The notes beneath the pieces are model-generated. The model made no database searches. It worked only from the letters and a program-made list of their open reading frames with translations, and had not been told where the DNA came from. A DNA stretch of 64,000 nt from Escherichia phage IME08, in the sequence record NC_014260.1, one strand, 5' to 3'. Numbering within the stretch: position 1 is the first letter of the stretch; each line of letters opens with the position of its first letter. Shown here one piece after another: positions 8,579 to 39,225 of the stretch. A program made the position numbers and the translations under genes.

Positions 8579-8608
8579 ATTATACTCTGGTCCCAAGAGT
8601 TTGTAAAC
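8579..8608 (-). promoter_or_regulatory. T4-type early promoter (PeSL-like cassette)
   Basis: Minus strand: GTTTAC (-35), 18-nt spacer, TATAAT (-10); inverted repeat GGGACCA/TGGTCC flanks the -10. Confidence 0.55.
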
Positions 8609-8808
8609 TATTTTTGTGCTTTAGCGCCTTTCCAACCTTCGAACATCATTGCTGCGGAAATTAACAAAGCGCCTGAACAAGCTGAATATTTGTGGTTCCA
8701 AAACCAGTTCAGAAAAACTTCGTCATCAATACCTTGGGCTATCATATTTTCAAAGAACTGACGACGGGCTTCAGAAATTTGCTGTGATAATTTAGATTCA
8801 GGATTCAT
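8608..8808 (-). CDS. Hypothetical protein
   Basis: 66-aa ORF. Confidence 0.4.
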   Translation of the reverse strand: MNPESKLSQQISEARRQFFENMIAQGIDDEVFLNWFWNHKYSACSGALLISAAMMFEGWKGAKAQK

Positions 8809-8940
8809 TTAAATTTTCCAATTGCCATTTTCATCAATGAATTTAACCCAGTCATTTACTGACCACTTGGTTGTATCGCCTTTTGGAGCAACATTTAAAG
8901 TATACAACCCTTGCTTAAAAAGCATTCGTTTGATATTCAT
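8809..8940 (-). CDS. Hypothetical small protein (43 aa)
   Basis: Internal ATG of track ORF 8809-9033 with strong SD GAGGAAACT, 8 nt after the upstream stop. Confidence 0.35.
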   Translation of the reverse strand: MNIKRMLFKQGLYTLNVAPKGDTTKWSVNDWVKFIDENGNWKI

Positions 8941-8947
8941 AGTTTCC

Positions 8948-9241
8948 TCAGCTGTAACGATAACATTCGTTTGATTTACGTTTTGCAACTTGATGAGAAG
9001 TATTGTAATCAGGTTCATCATCGTTGTAAACATCTTTTTTCAGCTTTCTCACTTCTTTACGAAGTTGGCGGTTCATTTCATTCTTAACTTCTGAGTCAAC
9101 GCCTCTCATACGTTTCCACTTGTCGGAACGGAAGATATTTTCTTCAACCAAATCCTGACTTACGCCGACCGGTGCTTTACGACGCCCGGAATAATAAAAA
9201 TCTTTTACAGACAATTCTTTACGACGGATAGTTTTACCCAT
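8948..9241 (-). CDS. Hypothetical basic protein
   Basis: 97-aa ORF, Lys/Arg-rich. Confidence 0.45.
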   Translation of the reverse strand: MGKTIRRKELSVKDFYYSGRRKAPVGVSQDLVEENIFRSDKWKRMRGVDSEVKNEMNRQLRKEVRKLKKDVYNDDEPDYNTSHQVAKRKSNECYRYS

Positions 9242-9243
9242 AG

Positions 9244-9498
9244 TTACCTCAGCAGTTTGTATCCAATAAGATTTTTAATGTATTGGACATCTTTGACATC
9301 CAAATCTAACTTAATATCTTTCAGGCGTTCAGCCAGAGTAAGAAATGTTACACGTTTCCAATTCTTAACAGGACAGCAATAAGTTTTAGGGCCGTTGGCG
9401 ATTTCAATATTCTTATCAGTGACGGTGAGAAAAATCAGGCGCTCATCATCCAGATTAAGGGTAATGATATTTTTCATTGAATGTAATTTCAGGCTCAT
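9244..9498 (-). CDS. Hypothetical protein
   Basis: 84-aa ORF. Confidence 0.45.
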   Translation of the reverse strand: MSLKLHSMKNIITLNLDDERLIFLTVTDKNIEIANGPKTYCCPVKNWKRVTFLTLAERLKDIKLDLDVKDVQYIKNLIGYKLLR

Positions 9499-9677
9499 AA
9501 TTTAATTTCCTTAGCTATCGAACAAAACAAACTACGGTCACATACCATCAATGGAATATTTCTATGGTCTAGTACACGATACCATACGTCTGAATCGCTA
9601 GCAGCAATTACACGAACCGCACGCCCATTTACCAAATAATACTGGTCGGCTTTAATTTCTTTATCTTGGATAGTCAT
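9495..9677 (-). CDS. Hypothetical protein
   Basis: 60-aa ORF, SD GAGGAG upstream, immediately downstream of an early promoter. Confidence 0.45.
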   Translation of the reverse strand: MTIQDKEIKADQYYLVNGRAVRVIAASDSDVWYRVLDHRNIPLMVCDRSLFCSIAKEIKL

Positions 9678-9706
9678 AATGTTCTCCTCATGTGTTGATA
9701 GGATAG

Positions 9707-9735
9707 ACTATAACATGTGAGGAGAGGAAGTAAAC
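9707..9735 (-). promoter_or_regulatory. T4-type early promoter
   Basis: Minus strand GTTTAC, 17-nt spacer, TATAGT, then CTATCCTATCAAC. Confidence 0.5.
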
Positions 9736-9736
9736 A

Positions 9737-10054
9737 CTAATCTTCAATTAAATCTCGGTCATAACCAAGTTCAATCAAAAGTGACTTAAAGGCAGGAATA
9801 TTTTCTATTTTCTTATTATCGACAAATATGACAGGATAGCGTATCGCTAAGCTCTTGAAGCCTGCACGTTTGGCCAATGATACTATAAGAGGCTTGTCAT
9901 ATACTGCGCCTGACGGCGTCTGATTAATCACAGGATAGAAAGTATGTGGGATAGAAAGGGAATTTAGGAGCGATAGAACAGCAATGCACCCTGGACAGCG
10001 CATGACTGTCTCAGGGATACCATAAATCTCAATTTTAGTTAACTTTTGGTCCAC
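9737..10054 (-). CDS. Glutaredoxin/NrdH-like thioredoxin-fold protein
   Basis: 105 aa with CPGC active-site-like motif after a beta strand (IEIYG) and a P-VIFVD element; occupies the T4 nrdH position between 55 and 49. Confidence 0.5.
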   Translation of the reverse strand: MDQKLTKIEIYGIPETVMRCPGCIAVLSLLNSLSIPHTFYPVINQTPSGAVYDKPLIVSLAKRAGFKSLAIRYPVIFVDNKKIENIPAFKSLLIELGYDRDLIED

Positions 10055-10331
10055 AGGAAATAACTCCTTGGTAGTCCCAGGTTTTTAGAACTTCGTCTTC
10101 ATTAGTTCCGTATGGAACGTAAACCTGTACAAGGAACCCGGTATCATCAAAAGAGAAGTAGACAGTAGGTTTAATACCATGAATCTCTGACAGAGCATAG
10201 ATGTCCTTGAGGTCGTCTTCCTTACCTTTAAAGAATTCCGGGTTCAGGTCACAGTCATGGAAGTACCAATCATCACCGAATTTGTCCCAGGCGGTCCAAT
10301 TGGTAGCTACATACTCTTCAAAACGTTTCAT
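10035..10331 (-). CDS. Hypothetical acidic protein
   Basis: 98-aa ORF. Confidence 0.45.
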   Translation of the reverse strand: MKRFEEYVATNWTAWDKFGDDWYFHDCDLNPEFFKGKEDDLKDIYALSEIHGIKPTVYFSFDDTGFLVQVYVPYGTNEDEVLKTWDYQGVISCGPKVN

Positions 10332-10555
10332 TCTTTCACCTTCATCATTTTAGAAATAACACCGTGAACAGCCTGGATTCGTTTTTCGAACTCAGACCCT
10401 TCAAGACCTTTTTCAGTACTCAGGGCACCGATAATAACAAACAGTAATCCAAACGGGATGACCAGGATTAAAAGGCATACGATAAACAGGGCAAATGTAA
10501 TATTGGCCAGGATATCGGAAACAGCATTACGAAATTTGTTCATTAAAGAACCCAC
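10328..10555 (-). CDS. Small membrane protein (two predicted TM helices)
   Basis: 75-aa ORF, hydrophobic core LANITFALFIVCLLILVIPFGLLFVIIGAL. Confidence 0.45.
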   Translation of the reverse strand: MGSLMNKFRNAVSDILANITFALFIVCLLILVIPFGLLFVIIGALSTEKGLEGSEFEKRIQAVHGVISKMMKVKE

Positions 10556-10664
10556 ATGTTAGTTACAACAAATAACCATTGAGCAGGATACTCAACACCC
10601 ATAATACGCACCGCATCGTTCAGAGATTCGGTTAAAGCATAAAATGTGTAGCCATAAAAATTAA

Positions 10665-11138
10665 TCATTTAAGCGATTTCCTCAGTTGTTTTTTAAACGA
10701 ATCGACCATTTGTTTCTTAGTAGCAGATTCATTATAAGTCATTCCATGTGAAAGCATTTCAGCAATCATTTCTTCCTTACCCAACCTGCTGAACTCTTTG
10801 GTTTTATCGGGAACGAAATTAGGATGAATATTGTTTTCAGTATAATCAGCTTTCAGATAGACCAGCAAATTCTCTAACCATTCGAGGTAGTCAACGTTTT
10901 GACCTTTAAGACCAGAACGGTTGAACTTATGCTTCATTTGTCCTTCTGCAGCATTGCACAGGTTACATAGTAAACCACGAACCTTACCGGCTTTTGGCCC
11001 GTTTAACTCGTGGTCGTGGTCAAGGTGGTTACTTTGAACATCAGGGTTTAATTCACGTTTACAAATCAAACACTTACCACATTGTGCATCATAAAGTTTT
11101 TGTTTTTCTTCTTTGTATAATTTGCCGGTCAACAACAT
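10665..11138 (-). CDS. 49: Endonuclease VII (Holliday-junction resolvase) gp49
   Basis: 157 aa, identical length to T4 gp49 and near-identical sequence MLLTGKLYKEEKQK.YDAQ.GKCLIC.RELNPDVQ.NHLDHDHELNGPKAGKVRGLLCNLCNAAEGQMKHKF. Confidence 0.93.
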   Translation of the reverse strand: MLLTGKLYKEEKQKLYDAQCGKCLICKRELNPDVQSNHLDHDHELNGPKAGKVRGLLCNLCNAAEGQMKHKFNRSGLKGQNVDYLEWLENLLVYLKADYTENNIHPNFVPDKTKEFSRLGKEEMIAEMLSHGMTYNESATKKQMVDSFKKQLRKSLK

Positions 11139-11270
11139 AATAAACCCTTACCATTATTAGATAAGGGTATTTATTAATATCCTAATAGTTTAGCAGTGCA
11201 ACTTAGCACTAACAACAATCCGAATAAAACAACTCCTACCCAAAATACCGTAATAAGAGCATCCATATCA

Positions 11271-11444: not shown

Positions 11445-11659
11445 CAGAACGCCTCGTCGGAAAAGCGAAGTTGAGCTTCAAGCCAATGAATATAATCGGC
11501 TGCAGCTTTAATCAAATCGGATTCTAAGTCAGGTAAAGAACCCGAATCCGACAATTCGTAAAGCGAATGTTCAATCAGACGGCCTTTATGACGGCCAACT
11601 TCAATTTTGGTACCCATATCCAAACTCCATATCGATGAAATCATTGTTTGAAGGTTCAT
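11444..11659 (-). CDS. Hypothetical protein
   Basis: 71-aa track ORF; the true start is probably an internal Met because the -10 of the upstream promoter overlaps the first ATG. Confidence 0.4.
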   Translation of the reverse strand: MNLQTMISSIWSLDMGTKIEVGRHKGRLIEHSLYELSDSGSLPDLESDLIKAAADYIHWLEAQLRFSDEAF

Positions 11660-11686
11660 TATACTCTATTTCGGAATCGTTGTAAA
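11657..11686 (-). promoter_or_regulatory. T4-type early promoter
   Basis: Minus strand GTTTAC, 18-nt spacer, TATAAT. Confidence 0.45.
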
Positions 11687-11733
11687 CCGGTTCCTCTGGC
11701 TCGGTAGTTTTCCACCGAGCGACATACCATGGC

Positions 11734-13175: not shown

Positions 13176-14182
13176 TTCAGCAGCTCCAGAGCTTGTTCAA
13201 GACGGTCTAAACGATTGGTAGACTCTTCCCAAAGTTTCTTGGCGGCGGTATATTGGCCGGTCAGTTTTTTGTTAATAGCAAGGGCATCTTTATACGCTTT
13301 TTCTAAGGCCACGATTTCCGGTAACTTGGATTTAGTAATTGGTGTAGGGGCCATGATAGGGCTGTTCAAGTCGTTAATCAAATCTTCTAATGTAGCAGGC
13401 TCTTTATCAGTATTCACAATTTCCTCACATTTTTCTTGGTAAATTTCAGCGTCAGTTTTTGGAACGGTACATTTGATTTCACGGACTGTTACTAAAACTT
13501 CATATCCTTTCCAGCCTAAGTGATGTTTAACTTCTTGGGTCTCATATTTCTCTACGGTATCCATCAGAGCTAAAGCTTGTTCGATAGTATTCAAGGTATC
13601 GTAAGCAATATCTTGATACTTTACAACTTCCGCATCATCTTTAGGTTTCCTATTAGGTGACCAAATAACAGAAATAATAGCTTTTCCTTTATAACTATTT
13701 GTTTTAATCATGCAATTGGCCATCGGGTGAATAGTACGACAATCACCGGAAACTATAGTTTTAGAGGCCGCTTTGAGAATTAATGCAGAGTTAGCTTTGA
13801 ATTCGGTAACCCAACGTTGTGGAAATAAACTACTAGGGTCCATACCTTTAATTTTGATATAACTTTTTATGGTATCACCAAACCATTTGTAGCTAACAGC
13901 ATGGCTAGAACCCGGATGTTTCTCTTTGCCAAACTCTGAAAGGATGTCCTTATTGACCAGTCGCGAAAGCAGTCGAGAACCTTTAAATGTTTTAATGATA
14001 TCATGAATGCACAAACGGCCTGCAATCTTTTCGATTTCAGCTTTGAAACAGCGCGATAATGCATCATCAATTTGGTCGACCCATTTATTGATATTAGAAA
14101 CTATTACCACATATGGGGTTAATGGAGGGGTGTTGGCAGTGATATACGTAGTAAAGGCATTGATGTATTCAGTACGAGTCAT
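13172..14182 (-). CDS. Hypothetical protein (336 aa)
   Basis: Long ORF, SD GAGGAG, immediately downstream of an early promoter. Confidence 0.55.
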   Translation of the reverse strand: MTRTEYINAFTTYITANTPPLTPYVVIVSNINKWVDQIDDALSRCFKAEIEKIAGRLCIHDIIKTFKGSRLLSRLVNKDILSEFGKEKHPGSSHAVSYKWFGDTIKSYIKIKGMDPSSLFPQRWVTEFKANSALILKAASKTIVSGDCRTIHPMANCMIKTNSYKGKAIISVIWSPNRKPKDDAEVVKYQDIAYDTLNTIEQALALMDTVEKYETQEVKHHLGWKGYEVLVTVREIKCTVPKTDAEIYQEKCEEIVNTDKEPATLEDLINDLNSPIMAPTPITKSKLPEIVALEKAYKDALAINKKLTGQYTAAKKLWEESTNRLDRLEQALELLK

Positions 14183-14208
14183 GATATTCTCCTCAAGTTG
14201 ATAGAAAG

Positions 14209-14238
14209 ATTATACTCCATCCATCCTTGGATGTAAAC
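14209..14238 (-). promoter_or_regulatory. T4-type early promoter
   Basis: Minus strand GTTTAC, 18 nt, TATAAT, then CTTTCTATCAAC. Confidence 0.55.
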
Positions 14239-16224: not shown

Positions 16225-16749
16225 TTATGCGAGAACCGTCTTTAAACGCTCTTCAAATTTCTGAAGCAGAGCTTGGCGTTCAGCTCGTTGTGATTTGTAC
16301 TGCTCGATACGACCTGAAGTGAGGGCGTACTGTTCGTTTACTGATTCCCGCATGAATTCAGGAATCTCTTTACAAGCTTTTATTTCGTCAAACTTATCAA
16401 TAACCGCTTGTTCCTCGGCAATCAGATTATCGAAATAAGCGATATCAGATTTAACGTTTGCCAGGTCAGATTCAGTAGGCATTAAACGTTTGTTACGTTC
16501 AGCTTGATAAGCTTGATTGGTTTCACGACTCCAGTGAAGAGTACGTTTTTTGTTAGTGTTTTTATAGAGCTCTACAATACCAACTGAATCGATGACTGCA
16601 ATCCAGTTCCAACGGCTTTTGTAAATCTCTCCTCCAGATACGGTAATCTCATTACCACAAGCAACGTCGTTAAAGAACTTGCTTTGTTTTTCAGATTTGA
16701 AATTACCGTTGTTGAAATTAATCAGTGAAAAAATATCTTTAGCGTTCAT
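16225..16749 (-). CDS. Hypothetical protein (174 aa)
   Basis: ORF with SD GGAGG, directly downstream of an early promoter. Confidence 0.5.
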   Translation of the reverse strand: MNAKDIFSLINFNNGNFKSEKQSKFFNDVACGNEITVSGGEIYKSRWNWIAVIDSVGIVELYKNTNKKRTLHWSRETNQAYQAERNKRLMPTESDLANVKSDIAYFDNLIAEEQAVIDKFDEIKACKEIPEFMRESVNEQYALTSGRIEQYKSQRAERQALLQKFEERLKTVLA

Positions 16750-16775
16750 GATAACCTCCAGTAGTTGATAGGTCT

Positions 16776-16804
16776 ATAGTATCATTTCTACCGGAGATGT
16801 AAAC
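16776..16804 (-). promoter_or_regulatory. T4-type early promoter (PeSL-like cassette)
   Basis: Minus strand GTTTAC, 17 nt, TACTAT, then AGACCTATCAAC. Confidence 0.6.
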
Positions 16805-17158: not shown

Positions 17159-18139
17159 TTATTTCAGAAGTGTAACTTCAGCGATTTCGTTCCAGTCATT
17201 TTTATCGGTGGCAATGAAGTCCGCCAGATAAAGAGCTGTACGTAATGATACGTTACGAAGACGAGATACATTAGCCTTCATCCATGCTAAAGCTTGATAA
17301 GTCTCAGCATCAGTCAGACCTCGATTTTGCATCATATCAGTAGACAGGATAACGTCTTCAACACGAACCATAATCTCTTCGTTCGAGTGAACTCCGAGGT
17401 CTAAGTAAACTGAACGAGATACTAAAGCCTGGAGGTGCGGAGCAAGTTTAGTTCCACGCTCTAATTCACGGTCAATATCTACGTTGGTGATGAACACGAT
17501 GGTGCCTTCGTATTCGAATTCTTTATCGATGTTTTTATCATCGAGGTAAGAACTTGAAGTGCTCCAGCACACCTTACGTTTTTCACCAGTATCCAATGCT
17601 GCTTTTAACAGGTTCAGGATATCCATATCAGAGAATACATCAACATCATCGATAAGAAGAACACTATTAGGGCCGCGGTTATTCCAAAGCTGCTCGTAAA
17701 GACCGATTCCACTAATCTTTCCGTTGATTGATTTATATTCGATAGTTTCATTTTCGTGGGCATTTTGTAATGCTTTATCCAAAGAATACGTTTTACCAAT
17801 ACCTGCGGCACCAGAGATGATAAGGGAACGAATTTTACCATCGATGATTCCGTTGGTCATCATGTTCATTACTTTAAAACGTTTGTTGATGCGATGTTTC
17901 ATTTCTTCGGCGGATTCAGTAACCATTGCAGGAGCTTCAGCACCTTCCATTTCAACGTCACATTTGAACACCCATACACCACGTTCAACACCATCAATCT
18001 GTACGAATACCTTACCATCACCGAGATGAGCTTCGGATTCATGAATTTTATTAGGGAACCAGGTTTTACCTGAACTCATGAACGTACCAGAGATTTCATT
18101 ACCGCGATAGATACCTTTGTTGATTTTGATAGTTAACAT
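17159..18139 (-). CDS. P-loop ATPase (Walker A GAAGIGKT, Walker B LLIDDVD)
   Basis: Start placed at MLTIKINKG with SD GGAG, because an early promoter lies within the longer track ORF 17159-18226. Confidence 0.55.
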   Translation of the reverse strand: MLTIKINKGIYRGNEISGTFMSSGKTWFPNKIHESEAHLGDGKVFVQIDGVERGVWVFKCDVEMEGAEAPAMVTESAEEMKHRINKRFKVMNMMTNGIIDGKIRSLIISGAAGIGKTYSLDKALQNAHENETIEYKSINGKISGIGLYEQLWNNRGPNSVLLIDDVDVFSDMDILNLLKAALDTGEKRKVCWSTSSSYLDDKNIDKEFEYEGTIVFITNVDIDRELERGTKLAPHLQALVSRSVYLDLGVHSNEEIMVRVEDVILSTDMMQNRGLTDAETYQALAWMKANVSRLRNVSLRTALYLADFIATDKNDWNEIAEVTLLK

Positions 18140-18176
18140 TATATTCTCCGTTTCACTCAGTAGATTTGATAGGTCC

Positions 18177-18205
18177 ATAATAACATGCTCTACGAGGGTG
18201 TAAAC
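18177..18205 (-). promoter_or_regulatory. T4-type early promoter
   Basis: Minus strand GTTTAC, 17 nt, TATTAT, then GGACCTATCAAATC. Confidence 0.55.
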
Positions 18206-18224
18206 TCTTTTTTGCACTAAACCC

Positions 18225-18246
18225 AAAAAAGGCCCGAAGGCCTTTT
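18225..18246 (-). terminator. Rho-independent terminator (UUCG tetraloop hairpin)
   Basis: GGCC-UUCG-GGCC followed by UUUUUU on the minus-strand transcript, just after the stop of the 18248-19258 gene. Confidence 0.55.
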
Positions 18247-18247
18247 A

Positions 18248-19258
18248 TCATTTATAATACGAGTTATGGTTTTCTAGGTAAACCTCTTCAACGAACTTGT
18301 CCCAGAACTTCATGTCTACCTTCTCAGGCATACCATTCTTAGCGGCCCAGATAGCATTAGTTTCGACTTCATCAACGATGGCTTCAAGTTCAGCCTGTAC
18401 ATCTTTAAAAGCATGAAGCCCTTGTTTGATTTCAAGGATAAACGGTGCTGTACGTAAAGGATATTGGAGGTCGCCTGTTTGATAGATTTCCTTCAACTGA
18501 TATCCAGCACGATAAGCATGGCTCAGAGCTTTCCAGTCAATACCTTCGTTAGCTTCAGCTTTACGAGCACGTTCGCCATATTCCGAATCGAGCTTATTCA
18601 GAGATTGCTTGAGCTCGATTAATGACAGAGTGGTTTGGTATTTACGTCCGAGAACAGTATAGAACGTTTGAGGACCTGTTTTCTCATGGTTGTAGAATAC
18701 CCATTCACAGAACTCGTTTTCAGGGAGTCGATGTTTGATATCTTCTACCTTAGTGCGACGTTGCTTAGTAGAACCATCTTCTTGATAATCGACCCACTGT
18801 TCGGGAATCTGGTTAACAATAGCCAGTACACCACGCAGAGCAGCCAGTCGAGAACCTTTAACGCCATATTTAGAAGCTTGCTTACGGACATACCCTAAAT
18901 AGGCTTTCATGTTGGTTGTATAGAACCGTGAACGATTATCTTGGATAAATTTCCATACATCAGGTAAATCAGATTTAACCACCAGTTCAGCTGGAGTGTG
19001 GAGCATATCCAGAGCAACGGTTTCGCCATCAGCCGCTAGTTTAAAGAAATATTTCAGGCTGTAAAGCTCATGGTCAACATCATCTTTAGTGTTTTTGGAA
19101 GCAGTGTTATTCGTGTTCAGGTTGGTATGGTTCATAGCCGTACCTAACAGAATATCACGCGGATGTGGAACAAAGATTTCTTTAAAATCGACATCAGATT
19201 CCGGAGTACTTGTTCCATAAAGGTGGCTACCGAAGTAGCCTTTCATAACTGTTCTCAT
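18248..19258 (-). CDS. Putative nucleotidyltransferase (Pol-beta-like NTase fold motif)
   Basis: 336 aa; N-terminal GSHLYGTSTPESDVDF fits hG[GS]-x9-13-Dh[DE]; a third acidic residue candidate lies in VALDMLH. Confidence 0.45.
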   Translation of the reverse strand: MRTVMKGYFGSHLYGTSTPESDVDFKEIFVPHPRDILLGTAMNHTNLNTNNTASKNTKDDVDHELYSLKYFFKLAADGETVALDMLHTPAELVVKSDLPDVWKFIQDNRSRFYTTNMKAYLGYVRKQASKYGVKGSRLAALRGVLAIVNQIPEQWVDYQEDGSTKQRRTKVEDIKHRLPENEFCEWVFYNHEKTGPQTFYTVLGRKYQTTLSLIELKQSLNKLDSEYGERARKAEANEGIDWKALSHAYRAGYQLKEIYQTGDLQYPLRTAPFILEIKQGLHAFKDVQAELEAIVDEVETNAIWAAKNGMPEKVDMKFWDKFVEEVYLENHNSYYK

Positions 19259-21228: not shown

Positions 21229-21459
21229 TTAAATTTTTTCGAATAATGCTAAAGCTTTTTCGATAGCTACAGATTTGGTACCAATAACCATTTTAGGCTG
21301 AGATTGGAACTTAGTAGCTTCGTAAACTTCTAAACCGGTTACTTTACCATTTTGTTCGATAATAGCAAAGGTGGCGTTTTCAAAATCTTCAGCTTTAACT
21401 TTAAGTGCTTTAGAAGCTTTAGCGATATCGATAACTTTCAGGTTGGTGATGGTTTTCAT
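21229..21459 (-). CDS. Hypothetical protein
   Basis: 76-aa ORF with SD GAGGAG, first gene after an early promoter. Confidence 0.45.
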   Translation of the reverse strand: MKTITNLKVIDIAKASKALKVKAEDFENATFAIIEQNGKVTGLEVYEATKFQSQPKMVIGTKSVAIEKALALFEKI

Positions 21460-21487
21460 TTTGTTCTCCTCATTAGTTGATAGGTCT

Positions 21488-21516
21488 ATAGTATCATGTT
21501 CCTAGAGGATGTAAAC
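21488..21516 (-). promoter_or_regulatory. T4-type early promoter (PeSL-like cassette)
   Basis: Minus strand GTTTAC, 17 nt, TACTAT, then AGACCTATCAAC. Confidence 0.6.
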
Positions 21517-21524: not shown

Positions 21525-21555
21525 GAAAAAAGGTCCCACCGAAGTGAGACCTTTG
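21525..21555 (-). terminator. Rho-independent terminator (UUCG tetraloop)
   Basis: GGUCUCAC-UUCG-GUGGGACC followed by UUUUUU, right after the stop of the 21557-21940 gene and just upstream of the next promoter. Confidence 0.55.
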
Positions 21556-24919: not shown

Positions 24920-25378
24920 TTAAAGATAGATTACTTTCGTGCTGGTTTTACCTTCTAAACGTTTAGAGTTAACAAATGCCATACGACATTTAAGGGAATA
25001 TCCTTTATCAGGATGTTTACGGTCTACGGTCATACCTAGCCATAAGGTTTTATCGGTAATTTCGAGACGCAATGGACGATACACTTTACCAGGGACAATT
25101 TCGGATTCTACATCAGGCAGAGGTTCCTGGATTAAGAATTCATGGATTTCTTTAACATGGTTATGGAGTTGCTTGAATAAAGCAAAAACGTATTTTTCGT
25201 CGATTTCACGTTGGATAGCACGGTCCAACAAATGATTAGAGTACTTAATAAAGAAGGCTGGGACTCCGCTCTTAACGGCGGCTTTTTTGATGGACGCATT
25301 CAGTTCGCGGAATTCGGTTTCGAACTGACGACGTAATTTGTTGCGGCGGATGAATACTTCTGAATTAATTTCTGACAT
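24920..25378 (-). CDS. regB: Site-specific endoribonuclease RegB
   Basis: 152 aa (T4 RegB 153); EVFIRRNKLRR.FE.EFR...HLLDRAIQREIDE.YVF.LF matches T4 RegB. Confidence 0.85.
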   Translation of the reverse strand: MSEINSEVFIRRNKLRRQFETEFRELNASIKKAAVKSGVPAFFIKYSNHLLDRAIQREIDEKYVFALFKQLHNHVKEIHEFLIQEPLPDVESEIVPGKVYRPLRLEITDKTLWLGMTVDRKHPDKGYSLKCRMAFVNSKRLEGKTSTKVIYL

Positions 25379-25406
25379 TTTGTAATCTCCTGTAGTTGAT
25401 AGGTTT

Positions 25407-25435
25407 ATAGTATCATGTCTACAGGAGATGTAAAC
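25407..25435 (-). promoter_or_regulatory. T4-type early promoter upstream of regB
   Basis: Minus strand GTTTAC, 17 nt, TACTAT, then AAACCTATCAAC; inverted repeat CCTGTAG/CTACAGG spans the -10. Confidence 0.6.
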
Positions 25436-25439: not shown

Positions 25440-25649
25440 TTATTCTTGGAATGGGGTAAGTTTTCCAGCAGCTGAACAAATTTCTACCAGTACAGGGTAA
25501 AACTCTTTCACTTGTTCAAGGCGTTGGGCTGCATACTGTACTTCGCCTTCTTCGAGACAAGCCATTTGGTCGTCAAGCAAGTATTTGTGGTAGCCTGTAC
25601 AGGCTTCACCGATGATACGCTGGAAATCTTGTAAACTTTCAATTTTCAT
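25440..25649 (-). CDS. Hypothetical protein
   Basis: Internal Met (MKIESLQDF) of track ORF 25440-25691; start codon overlaps the upstream stop. Confidence 0.4.
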   Translation of the reverse strand: MKIESLQDFQRIIGEACTGYHKYLLDDQMACLEEGEVQYAAQRLEQVKEFYPVLVEICSAAGKLTPFQE

Positions 25650-25927
25650 CAGTATTTTTCCTCGGGTTGGAAAACGGAACGACATGCCCACATGCTTGCT
25701 TCTTTCAAGCGTTCGATTGCCGTACGAATCTGGGCTAGGCGTTCATGGGTGAGGTTGAATTCTTCATCACTCATTTTATCAACACCGGAGCATGTAAAGG
25801 CTTCAACATATTCTTCTTCCAAGGCTTTAAAGATTAACCCTAATCGAACTTCGGCATCTTTAATCGCATTCACTTTACCAATTTTATCGTCGGTATGTGG
25901 CTTATAACCCTTAATATCTTCAATCAT
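25649..25927 (-). CDS. Hypothetical protein (candidate Vs.4/Acb2-like by size and position)
   Basis: 92-aa ORF in the regB-to-denV interval where T4 carries vs.3-vs.8; the assignment is positional only. Confidence 0.4.
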   Translation of the reverse strand: MIEDIKGYKPHTDDKIGKVNAIKDAEVRLGLIFKALEEEYVEAFTCSGVDKMSDEEFNLTHERLAQIRTAIERLKEASMWACRSVFQPEEKY

Positions 25928-27491: not shown

Positions 27492-27896
27492 AGCCTTGCC
27501 ATAATGTTTGTACCAGGTAGGACGCTGTGCAATTTTTTCGTCCAAACGGGCCTGAGATATAGCAATAGAAGCTTCGTGGGGAACATAATCGCCACGGAAT
27601 TCCTGAGGAATATCACTAATGTCCTGGACTGTAGTATCCTTGATATTAAAGCCACGTTTTAAACATTCGGCTATAAGCTCGATTTGACGCTTACGTAAAA
27701 ATTCAAGCTTATCATAAAAGAAAGTAACATGGCCTGTACCAAGGATAAAAGTAGAGCTAATTTTAAAATCACGAACACGTTTACCATTAGCAACATGCTT
27801 ACGAACTGCACCGAAAACACGTGGTAATTCGCGATATTCAGCCATTAAGTGTTGGTCGGCCAATTCAGATACTAAGGTAAGGTTAATACGAGTCAT
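27480..27896 (-). CDS. denV: Endonuclease V (pyrimidine-dimer DNA glycosylase) DenV
   Basis: From [47 protein letters not shown] the sequence is nearly identical to T4 endonuclease V (138 aa). Confidence 0.92.
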
Positions 27897-27956
27897 TTTA
27901 GTGTTCTCCATGTTTGTGTGAGAACACTATATCACAGCTATTGTAAAAGTAAACTG

Positions 27957-28259
27957 TTATTTACCTTTAATTGCTTTAGCTGCTTCGGTAGCCGCTTGCT
28001 GAAGGTCATCCATAGACATACCAAACTTAGAAGCAAAGTTATCAATTTTCTTTTCGACAGAATTCAAAGGCTTGGCCTGTTTACCTTCATTAGCGCCCGG
28101 GAGAGCGAGAATACGCTCTTTGTCAATATAAAGGCTTACAAGTTTCTTACGGTCTTTATCTGGCAAATCATGAAATGAATGGGCCTTTTTATTTACAGCG
28201 GCTTCTAATTTACCTGCGGTTACGCGGGCTTCAGTGATAAATTCATTATAAGTTTTCAT
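27957..28259 (-). CDS. Internal head protein with capsid targeting sequence
   Basis: 100 aa, N-terminal [11 protein letters not shown]; lies between denV and e where T4 carries ipIII. Confidence 0.65.
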
Positions 28260-28740
28260 ATGCTTTCCAAGTACCTGTTTTAAATGTTGAAATCACGCGC
28301 TTAGCACGATTAGGAGTTTGTTTATACCAACGGGATTGAGCCAGGTTAACTGCCGCATCGTCCCAACGTTTCTGTTGGAGCATACGTAAAGAGTTAGTGA
28401 ACCCAGCTACACCTGCTTCACCCATCTGGAAGACCATGTTAATTAAAGCACAACGACGAACTTCGTCCAGTACATCATAAACAGGTTTCAATTTAGGATT
28501 ACGCAGAATAGCTCTACGAGCATTTTCAACCGATCGGTTAAAGAGTTGTTCAGCTTCAGCCATAGTAATACGACCGTTGCAAACCCGGCCCATAAGCTTA
28601 TCAAGTTCGGCACGAGCAACATCTTTTGAAGGGTTTTTGGTAATCAACTGGCCAATCCCAATAGTCCAATAACCTTCGGTGTCTTTATAAAGATTTAAAT
28701 CAAGACCTTCGTCTTGACGTAACATATCAAAAATATCCAT
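28246..28740 (-). CDS. e: Lysozyme (endolysin) e, glycoside hydrolase family 24
   Basis: 164 aa, same length as T4 lysozyme; [35 protein letters not shown]...[32 protein letters not shown]. Confidence 0.93.
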
Positions 28741-30733: not shown

Positions 30734-30946
30734 TTACTTTTTGTTGAAAAAGTACATTTTACCTTTAGGGGATAAGGATACACGAAGTGCGTTACCGATA
30801 CCAACTGAACATTTAACCAGGTCAGCAGATTTCAATTCACCGAATGCTTGACGAAGGTCACCGTCACGAGTGTTAACCATCAGGCATTTAGCACCAGCTG
30901 CACGAACTTCGTTTAACATGTTGATTGCTTGGTTAGAAAGTTTCAT
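30734..30946 (-). CDS. Hypothetical protein (70 aa)
   Basis: Start at MKLSNQ with SD GGAGAA downstream of an early promoter; track ORF extends to 31024 across the promoter. Confidence 0.45.
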   Translation of the reverse strand: MKLSNQAINMLNEVRAAGAKCLMVNTRDGDLRQAFGELKSADLVKCSVGIGNALRVSLSPKGKMYFFNKK

Positions 30947-30983
30947 TTTATTCTCCATTTCACTCTGTTGTTTTGATAGGTCT

Positions 30984-31012
30984 ATAGTATCATGCCTATA
31001 GACCTTGTAAAC
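30984..31012 (-). promoter_or_regulatory. T4-type early promoter (PeSL-like; identical 46-bp copy at 39181-39226)
   Basis: Minus strand GTTTAC, 17 nt, TACTAT; perfect 10-bp inverted repeat AGGTCTATAG/CTATAGACCT spans the -10. Confidence 0.6.
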
Positions 31013-35037: not shown

Positions 35038-35631
35038 TTACTTAAGTGAATTAATGTAGTCGTCGATATCAGCAGAAGTCGTATCCATTCCAACCTGTGG
35101 GCCTTTAAACGTTTCTACACGCAGCAGGGTATCTTCAATATCAATCTTAGTCAGTGCAGCGATTTCAACAACATCATCGGCAGTAGCAATACCAAGGGCA
35201 GCCATATTACGAGTTTCACGGATGTACTCGAGCTTAACAGCCAGTTCCTGACGAGAGTCATCAAGTTCCTTGACCTTCAGTTTAATTTCATTACGCATTT
35301 CGATATAATCATCGGCTTTCTTACGAAGCTGAGTAGCCGTACGACGATAAAGGAGGCCGAGTTTAGCATGTACCTGGACATCAGCGCCTTCGGCAATCAG
35401 TTTACGAATTTCACGTTCTTTAGAAGCAGCAAGCTGGTCTTTTTCATTAGCCAACGCACGAATACGTTTTTCTTCATTCACAGACTTAACATGAGCAGTC
35501 TGGAGTTCAGTGATTTTATCAATCAGGGTAGAAGCAGCTTTAGTATACTGGTCTTCGATTGACAGGTTCTGAGCCATTGCAGTACCCAGTTTAGAACGGA
35601 TGAATTCAACGATTTTCTTTAAAGTGTTCAT
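35038..35631 (-). CDS. Coiled-coil protein (possibly PspA/IM30-like)
   Basis: 197 aa, long heptad-rich helical sequence with the length and charge pattern of PspA-family proteins; similarity is not established. Confidence 0.4.
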
Positions 35632-35673
35632 AGTATTTCCTTCAGTTGGTTAAGATTTATAATCCATGAGGAC

Positions 35674-35703
35674 ATTATACCCTGTCCTCTGAGGGATGTA
35701 AAC
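35674..35703 (-). promoter_or_regulatory. T4-type early promoter
   Basis: Minus strand GTTTAC, 18 nt, TATAAT; inverted repeat GAGGACA/TGTCCTC. Confidence 0.5.
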
Positions 35704-35706
35704 ATT

Positions 35707-36105
35707 TTATTTCATTTTTGCGAGGCAGATTTCATTGGCTTCCCATTGAGCTTGCTTAATAATAGCTTTGGATACAGGAGCCCTTTGGCCATAAGTTTTT
35801 GACGTTGAGAGAACAATATATTTGTTTGTCTCATTATGCCAGCCCCATGATTTTTCGCCATGGGTACCTTTAACTACAGCTGACACCTCAACAGAGCAAC
35901 CACCATCAGAAATCTTGGTTTCGACAATCCATTCATTTCTTTCGGCGGCTTCAAGTTCTAATCTAGTTTTTTCTTCATACATGGCAGCCCAATCAGTTTT
36001 TGCCAAGTTGAAAGTGAGAGCTTTCTCTAATTCTTTGGCAGCTTTTTGTTGTTCAGGCGTTAATGAATTGTACAACTCTTGCATTTCTTTATCTTCGATA
36101 TTCAT
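35707..36105 (-). CDS. Hypothetical protein (132 aa)
   Basis: ORF with SD GAGGAG downstream of an early promoter. Confidence 0.5.
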   Translation of the reverse strand: MNIEDKEMQELYNSLTPEQQKAAKELEKALTFNLAKTDWAAMYEEKTRLELEAAERNEWIVETKISDGGCSVEVSAVVKGTHGEKSWGWHNETNKYIVLSTSKTYGQRAPVSKAIIKQAQWEANEICLAKMK

Positions 36106-36128
36106 TATGTTCTCCTCAAATTATGGGC

Positions 36129-36158
36129 TCATAATATCTTAATCATGAGCCCATGTAA
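36129..36158 (-). promoter_or_regulatory. T4-type early promoter
   Basis: Minus strand GTTTAC, 18 nt, TATTAT; perfect inverted repeat ATGGGCTCAT/ATGAGCCCAT. Confidence 0.55.
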
Positions 36159-36162
36159 ACAA

Positions 36163-36441
36163 TTATTTCATATTATTGAAATACTCTTCCGCATCAAAAT
36201 CGTTATCATGATAAACTTTGGTAGACAATTTAACATAACCTTCGGCGGCAAACATATTAACCACAACCTTTACAGTATACCACTGTCCGTCATCATTACC
36301 CATTACTGCGTAAGTTTCAAATATAGGATGGTCATCACCTATAACCTTAATATCGTTAACAGTAGCACCAAATTCTTCAGGAACGCATTTCATAAAGAAA
36401 TTAAACAATTCACCATAATTATCCATTTTACTCTCCTTCAC
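36163..36441 (-). CDS. Hypothetical acidic protein (92 aa)
   Basis: ORF with SD GGAG, downstream of an early promoter. Confidence 0.45.
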   Translation of the reverse strand: MKESKMDNYGELFNFFMKCVPEEFGATVNDIKVIGDDHPIFETYAVMGNDDGQWYTVKVVVNMFAAEGYVKLSTKVYHDNDFDAEEYFNNMK

Positions 36442-36461
36442 TCTGTTGTTTTGATAGGTCT

Positions 36462-36490
36462 ATAGTATCATGTTTAAAGGAGGTGTAAAC
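36462..36490 (-). promoter_or_regulatory. T4-type early promoter (PeSL-like cassette)
   Basis: Minus strand GTTTAC, 17 nt, TACTAT, AGACCTATCAAAACAACAGAGTG. Confidence 0.6.
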
Positions 36491-36523: not shown

Positions 36524-36546
36524 AAAAGGAGACCGAAGTCTCCTTT
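36524..36546 (-). terminator. Rho-independent terminator (UUCG tetraloop)
   Basis: GGAGAC-UUCG-GUCUCC followed by UUUU, right after the stop of the 36549-37166 gene. Confidence 0.45.
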
Positions 36547-36548
36547 CA

Positions 36549-37166
36549 TTATTTACGGGTCTTTTCGAACTGGGCCGCGTCACCAGCCAGACGACGAGCT
36601 TGACGAAGTTTGTTGTCGATTTCTTCGCGCATAGGCTGGGTATACTTAAGGCCTTCAACCGTCAGATAGAGGCGATAAAGGTCTGGGGTGTCTAGGTTGT
36701 TAATGTGCTGTCCGTTACGAAGAGTATTGAATTCACGAACAAGGTGTTTAGTTTCGGATTCGATTTCAGAAACCAAAGAAGCCAGTTGATTATATTTTTT
36801 AACTATAGTGCTGGTGTCAAACTTGATTTTAGGTTTAGGAGCTTCTTTTACCGGTTCGGCTTTAGGCGTCGGTTTCGGCGCTGCAACTTTGGCCTGGGCT
36901 GCAGGTTTAGCAACAGGAGCTTTAGCTGGTTTAGCAGGCTTAGTAGCGCCGCCAGCTACGATATCTTTAAAAGCTTTAGAAGCTTTGTAATATTCTTTCT
37001 GGTTACTAGTATCAAAACCATACATATCATAAACGTTTTTAAAGAATTCGGTGGTGGTTTTAGTCCCAGAAATTTTATCATAAGCCGCTTGCCACATATC
37101 TTTAGTCATGCGGACGCCGGCTTCGGTCAGAACGCTTTCGTTCAAAAATTCATTGTAAGTTTTCAT
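36549..37166 (-). CDS. Internal head protein (IPIII-like, basic Lys/Ala/Pro-rich) with capsid targeting sequence
   Basis: 205 aa; N-terminal [11 protein letters not shown]; Ala/Lys/Pro-rich basic middle region; its own late promoter upstream. Confidence 0.6.
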   Translation of the reverse strand: MKTYNEFLNESVLTEAGVRMTKDMWQAAYDKISGTKTTTEFFKNVYDMYGFDTSNQKEYYKASKAFKDIVAGGATKPAKPAKAPVAKPAAQAKVAAPKPTPKAEPVKEAPKPKIKFDTSTIVKKYNQLASLVSEIESETKHLVREFNTLRNGQHINNLDTPDLYRLYLTVEGLKYTQPMREEIDNKLRQARRLAGDAAQFEKTRK

Positions 37167-37194
37167 TATTGTTTCCTGTGTTAATTAACTTATC

Positions 37195-37202
37195 TATTTA
37201 TA
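37195..37202 (-). promoter_or_regulatory. Late promoter (TATAAATA) for the internal protein gene
   Basis: Minus-strand TATAAATA about 29 nt upstream of the ATG, SD ACAGGAAAC in between. Confidence 0.55.
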
Positions 37203-37203
37203 C

Positions 37204-37233
37204 AAAAAAGGCCCAACCTTTCGGAAGGGCCTT
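37204..37233 (-). terminator. Rho-independent terminator downstream of the tRNA cluster
   Basis: Minus-strand GGCCC...GAAA...GGGCC hairpin followed by UUUUUU. Confidence 0.6.
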
Positions 37234-37401
37234 TAACCTAGGGTAACCTTGTCGGGGTTCCACCTGCTAGGCAAGTGTTCGGTGCGCCGTTTCGGCTGTG
37301 AGATAAGGGACTTTAAGAGGAACTCATGTACGCCTTAAAGTCGGGTCTTATTCAGGGAACTTCAGTCCGACGACTTACCGGTAGCGACCCGGTTTCTTGT
37401 T

Positions 37402-37477
37402 TGGCCGAGACAGTAGGGATCGAACCTACGACCCAGGACTTAGAAGGTCCTTGCTCTTCCTTCTGAGCTATGCCTCG
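37402..37477 (-). tRNA. tRNA-Arg (anticodon UCU)
   Basis: 76 nt cloverleaf folded by hand: acceptor CGAGGCA/TGTCTCG, D-stem GCTC/GAGC, anticodon stem AGGAC/GTCCT with loop CTTCTAA, T-arm GTAGG-TTCGATC-CCTAC, encoded CCA. Confidence 0.8.
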
Positions 37478-37481
37478 TATT

Positions 37482-37556
37482 TGGCGGACATGCATGGATT
37501 CGAACCATGGACCAATTGATTAACAGTCAACTGCTCTACCACTGAGCTACACATCC
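37482..37556 (-). tRNA. tRNA-Asn (anticodon GUU)
   Basis: 75 nt: acceptor GGATGTG/CATGTCC (two G-U pairs), D-arm GCTC-AGTGGTA-GAGC, anticodon loop CTGTTAA, T-arm CATGG-TTCGAAT-CCATG, encoded CCA. Confidence 0.75.
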
Positions 37557-37560
37557 AAAT

Positions 37561-37634
37561 TGGTGGCCCTGGGTGGAATCGAACCACCATCCAGCGATTA
37601 TGAGTCGCTCGCTTGACCGTCCAGCTACAGGGCC
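37561..37634 (-). tRNA. tRNA with CAU anticodon (Ile2/lysidine-type or Met)
   Basis: 74 nt: acceptor GGCCCTG/CAGGGCC, anticodon arm AGCGA-CTCATAA-TCGCT, T-arm GGTGG-TTCGATT-CCACC, encoded CCA; anticodon arm resembles bacterial tRNA-Ile2. Confidence 0.7.
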
Positions 37635-37719
37635 TTAATTCTATTATGAAAGGCTCTTTGAGGGAAGAACCTTTGGTAATAGAGGGTATTAATGATAGAG
37701 TAATAATATCACATAATTC

Positions 37720-38004
37720 TTAAAGCATATTAATGTAATCAAGTTTAATAGAAGCAATCTTCAAAGGATTTTTAAAGATGTCGTATTCGACCAATCCATT
37801 TTCAGTTGCGGTATAAAAAGTAAAGTTAACAGAATTATAACGATGGCTGTTAACTTTGAGCTTAACATCGCTTGAACTACGTCCTATATTAACCTGTTGA
37901 ACATCAAGAACAGCATCTTTGCCATAATTGCGAATCAACAACTCAGCTGCAACCTGATCGGATTTATAGCCATTCTCTGGATTAGTAACCTTAACGTATA
38001 GCAT
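37720..38004 (-). CDS. Hypothetical protein (94 aa)
   Basis: ORF upstream of the tRNA cluster. Confidence 0.45.
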   Translation of the reverse strand: MLYVKVTNPENGYKSDQVAAELLIRNYGKDAVLDVQQVNIGRSSSDVKLKVNSHRYNSVNFTFYTATENGLVEYDIFKNPLKIASIKLDYINML

Positions 38005-38406
38005 TTAACCCTCGTCTACAATTGTGTGGGTATTGGCATTAACAATCTGCCACCAGTCAAAACGATTAGAACCGTAACAAGGCTTATTCTCGTTATCTTT
38101 AATGATATTACGTAGTTCATCTTCAGTAGCAGCTTTTGCGATTAAGTCAGTGTATCCACCACGTGGATAATAGTTGTCACCGGCGAACAAAAGGAAATTT
38201 ACCTTTCCAGAAGGAATATATGCTTCCTTAGGATACTTGTTTCCTGCATGGTCTACCACTTCAATATAACGATAAGGGATATCAGTACTTTCAACCCATT
38301 GCCAAGCTGCAGCAGGAGAGTCAAAAGCATCAACACCTAAACGGTTATCTTCATCTTTAGACGGGTTATTTTCATAATCCGCATATACATAATATTCAAC
38401 GTTCAT
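38005..38406 (-). CDS. Hypothetical protein (133 aa)
   Basis: ORF, start overlaps the upstream stop. Confidence 0.45.
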   Translation of the reverse strand: MNVEYYVYADYENNPSKDEDNRLGVDAFDSPAAAWQWVESTDIPYRYIEVVDHAGNKYPKEAYIPSGKVNFLLFAGDNYYPRGGYTDLIAKAATEDELRNIIKDNENKPCYGSNRFDWWQIVNANTHTIVDEG

Positions 38407-38603
38407 TATTCACCTTTAGAGATTTTATCCATTACGAAAGAGATTGAACCAATTAAAAATGCCACTACTAAAGAGATTATATTCTCGGAAGTTGAAAGCA
38501 TATCGAGCATGAATCCTGCAAACATACTAAAGCCAAAAGCAGTAACGGCTGCCAGTGCAGTAACATTTCTAATTAATTCACAACGTTTCATTTTATTCTC
38601 CAA
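38406..38603 (-). CDS. Small membrane protein (65 aa)
   Basis: Hydrophobic ORF with SD GGAG, downstream of an early promoter. Confidence 0.4.
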   Translation of the reverse strand: MENKMKRCELIRNVTALAAVTAFGFSMFAGFMLDMLSTSENIISLVVAFLIGSISFVMDKISKGE

Positions 38604-38627
38604 TCACTCATTTGTTTTGATAGGGCT

Positions 38628-38657
38628 ATAGTACCATCACTAGAGCCCGTTGTAAAC
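38628..38657 (-). promoter_or_regulatory. T4-type early promoter
   Basis: Minus strand GTTTAC, 18 nt, TACTAT, then AGCCCTATCAAAACA. Confidence 0.55.
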
Positions 38658-38659
38658 AA

Positions 38660-38932
38660 TTATTTTAAATAAATTGCATACTTTTTATAACCAGCCGTTT
38701 CGTGACGCAGCCCTTTTTCATTAGCAAAACGTTCAATATTGTTAATTTGATTCTGGTCGAGTTCTGAAGTATCAAATACAAAAAAGTTTCGCTTATTGCC
38801 TAAAGTTACATGATTAGTCAAATCGATGTTATAGAGATGATTTATATTATCAATCATAGTCTTAACAGATTTGTTAATTTTTACTTCTTCATTAAGAATA
38901 GATTCAGCGATAAATTCTTGATATGTTTTCAT
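38660..38932 (-). CDS. Internal-protein-like protein with capsid targeting sequence
   Basis: 90 aa, N-terminal MKTYQEFIAES. Confidence 0.55.
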   Translation of the reverse strand: MKTYQEFIAESILNEEVKINKSVKTMIDNINHLYNIDLTNHVTLGNKRNFFVFDTSELDQNQINNIERFANEKGLRHETAGYKKYAIYLK

Positions 38933-38934
38933 TT

Positions 38935-39159
38935 TTATTCAGCGCCAGCGGCTTTCAAAAGTTTTTTAAGATTAGCGGTGCCTTGAGCAGAAAATGTGAC
39001 CTTGCCGTCTTTTTCGCCGATGCTCCCGGTCAATTTAGCGAGCTTATCACTAGGGACTTTTTTAAAATCAGCCAATGAACCGTCAAAGGTTTTTGTAACA
39101 ACCGGCAGTTGGTCTTCGTGTTTTTTAGCTTCGGTAATAAATTCTTGATAAGTTTTCAT
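38935..39159 (-). CDS. Internal-protein-like protein with capsid targeting sequence
   Basis: 74 aa, N-terminal MKTYQEFITEA. Confidence 0.55.
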   Translation of the reverse strand: MKTYQEFITEAKKHEDQLPVVTKTFDGSLADFKKVPSDKLAKLTGSIGEKDGKVTFSAQGTANLKKLLKAAGAE

Positions 39160-39196
39160 TTTGATTTCCGTTTGGTTAGTTTGTTTTGATAGGTCT

Positions 39197-39225
39197 ATAG
39201 TATCATGCCTATAGACCTTGTAAAC
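39197..39225 (-). promoter_or_regulatory. T4-type early promoter (PeSL-like; identical copy of the 30984 element)
   Basis: Minus strand GTTTAC, 17 nt, TACTAT with AGGTCTATAG/CTATAGACCT inverted repeat. Confidence 0.6.

Follow-up and report, generated by a model that had tools for sequence, protein, structure and literature searches.

The window analysed here is a 64,000-nt stretch of the genome of Escherichia phage IME08 (NC_014260.1), and our subject is a family of repeated promoter cassettes on its minus strand, most of which can form a stem whose sequence differs from copy to copy. Megablast assigned the window to the genus Dhakavirus (JS98-like T4-type coliphages), with IME341 as the top match (97% over 8-32 kb). 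From the JS98 annotation, the region at 8-40 kb is the counterpart of the T4 early region from gene 55 to 57B/57A; its gene order is gene 55, nrdH, 49, pin, nrdC, tk, vs, regB, denV, internal-protein genes, e, tRNAs and 57B/57A, and all of its genes are read from the minus strand of the window. Six relatives were compared with the window: JS98, IME341, C6, AnYang, IME281 and Bp7.

Early-promoter cassettes of the minus strand

A scan of the window for GTTTAC-N16-19-TANNNT returned 19 matches at 17 distinct sites, two of them matched in two registers; all lie on the minus strand, 4.2 matches were expected, and none of 100 shuffles reached 19. A profile made from the copies yielded 15 strong members (cut-off E<=1e-6; E from 1e-13 to 1e-6; Table 1). 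All of them lie at 8.5-39.3 kb on the minus strand, and neither the plus strand nor the late-gene half at 40-64 kb gave a comparable hit. An earlier note on this DNA had reported at least 14 copies of such an element; each of its 14 positions holds one, 12 of them as given and two with a small correction (11657 to 11658 and 36129 to 36131), and the profile search adds a fifteenth at 27926-27954. A weak minus-strand match (GTTTAC-N18-TACAAT) lies inside an open reading frame (ORF) at 9002-9031, in the gene 55.5 homologue. T4 has it at the equivalent position (around 41261), and it may serve as an internal promoter for 55.4 or simply be conserved coding sequence. A GTTTAC-N18-TATTAT match at 18254-18283 on the same strand, at the end of nrdC.11, would fire straight into the UUCG terminator at 18227-18246 and is probably non-functional.

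The layout described by the earlier note, namely GTTTAC, a spacer of 17-18 nt (16-17 nt by the TTTACA convention) and a TATAAT-like hexamer, is present in all 15 copies with TAnnnT as the -10 element, and each is followed 57-75 nt on, on the same strand, by a GGAG Shine-Dalgarno (SD) sequence and an ATG. Two promoter classes can be distinguished, one with a 17-nt spacer, cATGaTACTATAGACCTATCAA and an extended -10 TG, the other with an 18-nt spacer and gaGTATAAT; an extended -10 (TGn) was flagged in nine copies and is apparent by eye in 9735. The 12-20 nt upstream are A/T-rich in every copy except 11687, and 11-12 copies have a stop codon no more than about 20 nt before GTTTAC. The -10 is followed by CTATCAA in 10 of the 15 copies, TATAGACCTATCAA is exact in five, and the several cassettes said to lie right 3' of a UUCG-hairpin terminator number three (21516, 18205 and 36490). 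The A seven bases past the -10 is the probable start site.

Given the motif sequence and the positional homology with T4, we identify the 15 elements as sigma-70-dependent early promoters of a JS98-like T4-type phage, a kind of signal that has long been known; our literature search returned no transcript data for IME08 or its close relatives, and no maps of transcription start sites or 3' ends for T4-type phages. The T4 early consensus places GTTTAC at -36 to -31 and the -10 at -12 to -7 and favours C at -3 to -1 (PMC1524935), and T4 early promoters are of the UP/-35/TGn/-10 type with further conserved positions (PMC2988021). The cassettes resemble them in hexamers, spacing, extended -10, C-rich -3 to -1, +1 A, CTATCAAC leader and strand. 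The same scan on the homologous T4 segment found sites before ipI, trna.4, e.8, e.6, ipIII, ipII, denV, regB, mobD.5, mobD.2, nrdC.10, nrdC.8, nrdC.4, pin and 55.6. Because 11 of the 15 copies precede the same gene as the matching T4 site, most cassettes are conserved in place and not mobile; even copy 11687, which has neither a stem nor an A/T-rich upstream region, has its T4 equivalent before pin. The T4 denV promoter corresponds almost base for base to the regB cassette of the window, both arms included. Unlike the T4 promoters, those described here belong to a different genus, Dhakavirus, and four window positions have no T4 counterpart in the compared region.

In their motifs, the cassettes match the anatomy of the promoter early stem-loop (PeSL) elements. 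These are defined by a stop codon within A/T-rich DNA upstream of a sigma-70-type promoter, a stem-loop that either lies between the -35 and -10 elements or overlaps the latter, and, last, an SD sequence and ATG (PMC2839356). As in the PeSLs of RB49/phi1, T4/PST and KVP40/nt-1 (PMC2839356, PMC4122927), the same composite occurs in plastic early regions, and some copies border gene swaps. The position of the stem differs, however: RB49 stems lie mostly between -35 and -10 or overlap the -10 and the published T4/PST stems lie just upstream of the promoter, whereas in the window the spacer itself is the 5' arm of most stems and the SD sequence is the 3' arm in about a third, a pairing that PMC2839356 and PMC4122927 do not describe.

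Table 1. The 15 minus-strand cassettes, each named by its higher coordinate. Stem arms are given as 5' arm / 3' arm; z compares RNA folding of the cassette, from GTTTAC to ATG, with dinucleotide shuffles; SD unpaired gives the predicted probability in read-through RNA / in the promoter's own transcript.
Cassette	Span (-)	Promoter	Downstream	Stem arms (-)	Pairing	z	UUCG terminator upstream	SD unpaired	RegB consensus match (-)
39225	39157..39225	GTTTAC 39225-39220, -10 TACTAT 39202-39197, ATG 39159-39157	two internal-protein genes	39209-39218 / 39191-39200	ends at about -1	-5.9			
38657	38589..38657		trna.4 homologue	GGGCTCTAG 38640-38648 / CTATAGCCC 38623-38631	one mismatch	-1.85			38592-38602 (GGAGAATAAAA)
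36490	36424..36490		e.8	spacer ACCTCCTT 36477-36484 / AAGGAG 36433-36438	spacer:SD	-1.9	36525-36546	0.01 / 0.88	
36160	36103..36160	N18, TATTAT	ORF 35707-36105	36142-36154 / 36123-36135	13-nt arms, overlaps -10; repeat finder	-6.1			
35703	35629..35703	N18, TATAAT	e.6	35683-35689 / 35668-35674	flanks -10	-1.1			
31012	30944..31012		ORF 30734-30946	30996-31005 / 30978-30987	arms identical to those of 39225; repeat finder	-3.7			30947-30957 (GGAGAATAAAA)
27954	27894..27954		denV	27920-27929 / 27899-27908	5' arm over -10/discriminator, 3' arm over GGAG SD	-3.5		0.02 / 0.39	
25435	25376..25435		regB	spacer 25419-25429 (ATCTCCTGTAG) / SD 25385-25395 (CTACAGGAGAT)	perfect	-6.2		0.00 / 0.62	
21516	21457..21516		ORF 21229-21459		weak spacer:SD	-1.0	21529-21554		21460-21470 (GGAGAACAAAA)
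18205	18137..18205		nrdC.10		no significant stem	+0.2	18227-18246		
16804	16747..16804		nrdC.8	spacer 16788-16798 / SD 16754-16764 (CTACTGGAGGT)	two G-U pairs	-3.4		0.00 / 0.13	
14238	14180..14238	N18, TATAAT	nrdC.4		marginal	-0.5			
11687	11615..11687	promoter-like, N18, TATAAT; inside 49.1-like ORF	pin homologue		none	0.0			
9735	9675..9735		gene 55.6	spacer 9712-9725 / 9683-9696	3' arm includes GAGGAG	-4.8		0.00 / 0.43	
8608	8537..8608	N18, TATAAT	gene 55.2	8588-8593 / 8574-8579	flanks -10	-1.9			

Stem geometry and conservation of pairing

The stems take two main forms. In six copies (39225, 31012, 38657, 36160, 35703 and 8608) the stem flanks or overlaps the -10, and its 3' arm consists of the 3' part of the -10 and the discriminator and ends at about -1. 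In four others (25435 before regB, 16804 before nrdC.8, 9735 before gene 55.6 and 36490 before e.8) the spacer pairs with the SD sequence, so that the -10 and the start site lie in a loop of at least 23 nt; 21516 belongs weakly to this class. The denV cassette, 27954, combines a 5' arm over the -10 and discriminator with a 3' arm in the SD sequence, and 18205, 14238 and 11687 have no significant stem. Overall, a spacer- or -10-anchored stem occurs in about 11 of the 15 copies and a UUCG terminator just upstream in three, with 36490 having both, while 14238 (marginal pairing) and 11687 (no pairing) have neither. Rfam reported no family over any cassette, three tRNAs being its sole matches.

The earlier note had described an inverted repeat spanning the -10 in most copies. 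A tight flanking or overlapping arrangement is indeed found in six; the remaining copies pair with the SD sequence, pair weakly or lack a stem, and the note did not recognize that roughly one stem in three sequesters the ribosome-binding site. Both repeats that it quoted were recovered by a repeat finder, one at exactly 30978-31005 and the other at 36123-36154 instead of 36121-36152. In the e.6 and 55.2 cassettes, which have the N18/TATAAT promoter, the -10 is also complementary to a TTATAA/ATTATA stretch in the leader (35658-35679 and 8563-8584), possibly a second pairing. The e.8 promoter spacer ACCTCCTT (36477-36484), which we take to be the same as, or to resemble, the 16S anti-Shine-Dalgarno end, would pair with practically any GGAG ribosome-binding site.

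Duplexes between the spacer and the downstream sequence are more stable in cognate than in non-cognate combinations. The means are -13.0 versus -8.3 kcal/mol for the window copies (permutation p<5e-5) and -12.4 versus -7.2 for T4's own promoters (p=5e-5), and cognate pairing was again the better when 35 non-redundant class-A cassettes taken from IMG/VR contigs were tested (p=5e-5). The orthologous regB promoter, followed through 18 IMG/VR contigs (RegB 59-99% identical) and T4, has six different arm pairs in six lineages, and the arms are complementary in all of them: ATCTCCTGTAG / CTACAGGAGAT in Dhakavirus, GTGTAGGAGTA / TACTTCTACAC in contigs L013-L015, GGGCTAT / ATAGCCC in L016-L020, TCCTCTTGAC / GTTAAGAGGA in T4, TCTCCTCTTTAT / ATAAAGAGGAGA in L022 and GGGCCAT / ATGGCCC in L024-L025.

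A column-wise test of the spacer:SD helix (columns 7-17 with 41-51) in 42 same-register cassettes found 73.4% of cells paired compared with 64.3% in shuffles, a value reached by none of 500, and 34-51% in slid registers; the covariation score was 0.307 against 0.183 (again 0/500 shuffles). The arm changes are matched, as in TGTAG/CTACA, AGTAG/CTACT, ATTAG/CTAAT, CATG/CATG and GGTCT/AGACC versus GGGCT/AGCCC. Orthologues of the 36160 cassette show a U-A, U-G, C-G series at one pair, and a search for a wider IMG/VR orthologue set for this stem matched only three contigs. The arms differ between copies and the pairing is kept, which indicates selection on structure, as had been proposed.

Read-through RNA and upstream terminators

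As the 5' arm of every stem lies upstream of the promoter's own predicted start, the stem can form only in read-through RNA. Partition-function folding predicts an SD sequence at least 20-fold less accessible in read-through RNA than in RNA from the copy's own promoter at 6 of 15 promoters in the window and 6 of 15 in T4; in the masked copies the predicted probability of its being unpaired is 0.00-0.02 in read-through RNA and 0.13-0.88 in the own transcript. The e.8, denV, regB and nrdC.8 promoters are predicted to be masked in both phages, and the masked or unmasked class agrees at 8 of the 11 promoters shared with T4, a number too small for significance. Leaders often match the target of RegB/S1, for which the consensus is GGAGRAYARAA (PMC1702504), and because the leaders of 38657, 31012 and 21516 match it exactly, their early mRNAs are predicted RegB targets. 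RegB is blocked by secondary structure (PMC3014915).

A cassette tends to have either a stem or an upstream terminator, a relation that the earlier note missed. In a set of 82 non-redundant cassettes drawn from the window, T4, the six relatives and IMG/VR loci, 1 of the 18 with an intrinsic terminator just upstream has a strong stem (at most -13 kcal/mol), compared with 36 of the 64 that lack such a terminator (Fisher p=7e-5; Mann-Whitney p=2e-4). The terminator detector was crude, and since it missed the terminator of 36490 and gave a false positive at 9735, its noise works against the association. This exclusivity points to a role in RNA, the stem dealing with incoming transcripts; it is left unexplained by a role as cruciform, protein site or recombination site. 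The stems also contain G-U pairs, and pairing is more stable in the sense than in the antisense strand (p about 0.001-0.005), which we treat as supporting evidence only because the sequences are not independent.

The probable explanation, in our judgement, is that these are sigma-70 early promoters with copy-specific hairpins that act on read-through RNA and are dispensable behind terminators. In about 11 of the 15 copies the otherwise unconstrained spacer would have evolved complementarity to sequence downstream of the -10, giving a hairpin that would form only in RNA entering from an upstream promoter. In the SD-masking copies (regB, denV, nrdC.8, e.8, 55.6 and, weakly, ORF 21229-21459), the 3' arm being the SD sequence, read-through RNA is predicted to be untranslatable at that gene and would be shielded from RegB, and the promoter-proximal RNA would stay open. 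A -10-flanking stem would most likely insulate cistrons from each other on read-through RNA, by attenuating transcription and/or by stabilising the 3' end of the upstream message. Behind an intrinsic terminator, which already stops upstream transcription, the hairpin would be dispensable and would be absent.

There is precedent for such an arrangement in the T4 genes e, soc, 49 and I-TevI, whose long transcripts have a sequestered ribosome-binding site and whose transcripts from an embedded late promoter are translated (PMC3014915). In both cases the hairpin has the SD sequence in its 3' strand and the promoter within or across its 5' strand, and the long RNA is masked and the proximal RNA open, here by prediction. 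The embedded promoter of those T4 genes is late (or middle), however, and its purpose is delayed translation, whereas the promoters embedded in the window cassettes are early, and the predicted consequence is that translation would be restricted to immediate-early, promoter-proximal RNA.

Several points weigh against this explanation. The start site is assumed from spacing, and the role of the -10-flanking stems, which have no U-tract, is its weakest link. Only about 14 of the 35 IMG/VR class-A cassettes have a strong stem, many having a consensus spacer with no partner, and 3 of the 15 window copies and about 60% of class-A cassettes genome-wide in the relatives have no stem; given these stemless copies, the hairpin is not a required part of the promoter. 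The pyrimidine-rich spacers could partly reflect a promoter preference that pairs with any GGAG. Covariation among close orthologues is thin: the six Dhakavirus relatives vary little and provide one fully compensated pair, about five wobble-compatible changes and about three single changes incompatible in the sense strand. Finally, the permutation, column and terminator/hairpin tests all use related sequences, without phylogenetic correction.

The authors of the PeSL concept proposed that the stems are terminators or attenuators for RNA polymerase arriving from upstream, as opposed to translational or stability elements. Exclusivity with canonical intrinsic terminators suggests functional equivalence, and the RB49 PeSL211/210 stem-loop cut downstream lacZ about as much as rrnB T1 (PMC2839356), although such an assay cannot tell termination from effects on translation or stability. 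However, no U-run stands after any of the stems (downstream of CTATAGACCT, for example, comes ATCAAAAC), a scan for terminator-like sites picks up none of them, and the loops of at least 23 nt in the spacer:SD class are unlike those of terminators. The lack of U-tracts and the failure of the terminator scan to detect any stem rule out a canonical terminator function, and we regard the proposal as a whole as possible but doubtful.

Gene-content boundaries and other explanations of the cassettes

The earlier note had also linked the cassettes to modular gene shuffling, for which PeSLs were proposed; the anatomy fits, as described above, and the link to shuffling is less secure. Comparison with the six relatives gives 42 distinct boundaries of indels or replacements in 8-40 kb; cassette footprints, which occupy 4.7% of the region, contain seven of them (binomial p=0.003). 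A boundary is present at 7 of 15 cassette junctions, which is not significantly more than at the remaining gene junctions (20-24 of 65; Fisher p=0.19-0.34); of those remaining junctions whose spacer measures 40 bp or more, 7 of 14 have one.

These numbers bear on the idea that homologous recombination acts preferentially at the cassettes, which are conserved repeats of about 90 bp, so that intervening genes are excised, inserted or exchanged, and that the cassettes owe their appearance to this. Class-A cassettes do share about 80-90 bp at about 78-86% identity, cassette 31012 having a similarity of about 90 bp to other cassettes, and boundaries are more frequent in their footprints than at random positions. 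The cases that fit best come from the internal-protein loci: JS98 has a replacement of 38666-39137 exactly between two cassettes, a deletion removes ORF 39238-39447 from C6 and AnYang at the 5' edge of cassette 39225, and the e-denV segment is exchanged (see below). Mini-circles between PeSLs have been demonstrated in RB49/phi1 (PMC2839356). Set against this are the absence of any excess under the gene-junction null, the eight cassettes with no boundary at all, the positional conservation of 11 copies with T4, and the finding that T4 deletions and amplifications arise readily at microhomologies of 2-10 bp anywhere (bioRxiv 10.1101/2022.04.14.488369); nor does recombination explain the copy-specific complementary arms or their absence behind terminators. 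We consider it unlikely that recombination shaped the cassettes in this way: they are not specifically supported as special shuffling sites, and a contributory role in recombination is possible but does not show in this region.

The neighbourhood of several cassettes varies among the relatives. A 76-aa minus-strand ORF at 21229-21459 (PHROG 18567, unknown function), right behind cassette 21516, is absent from all six, and an overlap of about 22 bp between the flanks in the relatives suggests insertion or deletion through the repeated SD/ATG leader. An insertion hot spot at 18167-18255, where a terminator and a cassette stand between nrdC.11 and nrdC.10, carries 205-1011 extra bases in the relatives, the window having the shortest version and the C6 and AnYang inserts including a plus-strand ORF. 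Immediately upstream of the regB cassette, a 69-aa minus-strand ORF at 25442-25650 (PHROG 2037) is shared with IME341, C6 and AnYang and precisely absent from JS98, IME281 and Bp7; its boundary lies 6 nt upstream of GTTTAC, and the other end has no second cassette. The e-denV segment, including the denV promoter cassette, has been exchanged among relatives (27899-28267).

Genes for internal virion or head proteins (PHROGs 7857, 7673 and 8765) adjoin cassettes on the minus strand at 27957-28259 and 38660-39159, the latter including the ORFs downstream of 39225, and they differ in number and identity among the relatives. Polymorphic internal-protein (IP) loci of T-even phages were described by Repoila et al. 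1994, as cited in PMC4122927. The internal-protein genes at cassettes 39225 and 27954 vary in a like manner, although the likeness applies to only two or three of the 15 cassettes. A cluster of tRNA-Arg(tct), tRNA-Asn(gtt) and tRNA-Met(cat) genes occupies 37402-37634 on the minus strand; its flanks (37142-37726) vary strongly among relatives, some of which have a homing endonuclease gene there.

Two further explanations concern the arms themselves. The pairing might be a by-product of the promoter consensus, in which a pyrimidine-rich spacer faces a purine-rich SD sequence and CTATAG is a palindrome, combined with the shared ancestry of the paralogous copies. CTCC/GGAG complementarity is indeed generic, close paralogues pair in non-cognate combinations as well (the 25435 spacer with the 16804 leader at -12.7), and a stem is lacking in many class-A cassettes that share the downstream consensus. 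Pairing nevertheless runs past CTCC/GGAG with matched changes, and the cognate advantage in all three data sets (window, T4 and IMG/VR), together with the fall of the slid-register controls, rules out chance or consensus as the source of the stems; we hold this explanation to be very improbable. Least probable of all is a role at the DNA level, in which the inverted repeats would form cruciforms or be palindromes bound by a protein, and would modulate promoter opening or assist replication or recombination. Several perfect DNA palindromes centred on the -10 region do occur among them, but as a main role this is ruled out by arms that vary by copy and hence offer no common binding site, by G-U pairs that some stems need and that are mismatches in DNA and on the other strand, by 3' arms that can lie at least 25 nt downstream in the SD sequence, and by the loss of stems behind upstream terminators, for which it gives no reason.

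The finding is real but largely ordinary, in that the promoter reading is correct and long known. As a promoter family the cassettes add little, since T4 early promoters and the PeSL idea are established and PeSL-like sequences had already been noted in JS98-type phages, and the popular claim of cassette-driven gene shuffling fails the gene-junction control in this region. The copy-specific stems, by comparison, behave as RNA devices for read-through transcripts: their arms covary, in a third of them the site for ribosome binding and RegB is buried, and terminators take their place elsewhere. Taken together, these features offer a testable rule by which T4-type phages would keep dozens of closely packed early genes insulated, and one that would be useful in designing or refactoring phage genomes. 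A wider proposal, which we advance tentatively and judge somewhat more likely to fail than to hold, is that throughout the Tevenvirinae the early-promoter spacer serves as the 5' arm of a read-through-only hairpin, so that early genes would be translatable and RegB-cleavable only from their own immediate-early transcript and RNA entering from early or middle promoters upstream would be masked or insulated, with terminators as interchangeable substitutes. If true, the principle known from e, soc, 49 and I-TevI would no longer be confined to a handful of late-promoter cases and would become a rule for early genes across the genome, kept by compensatory evolution.

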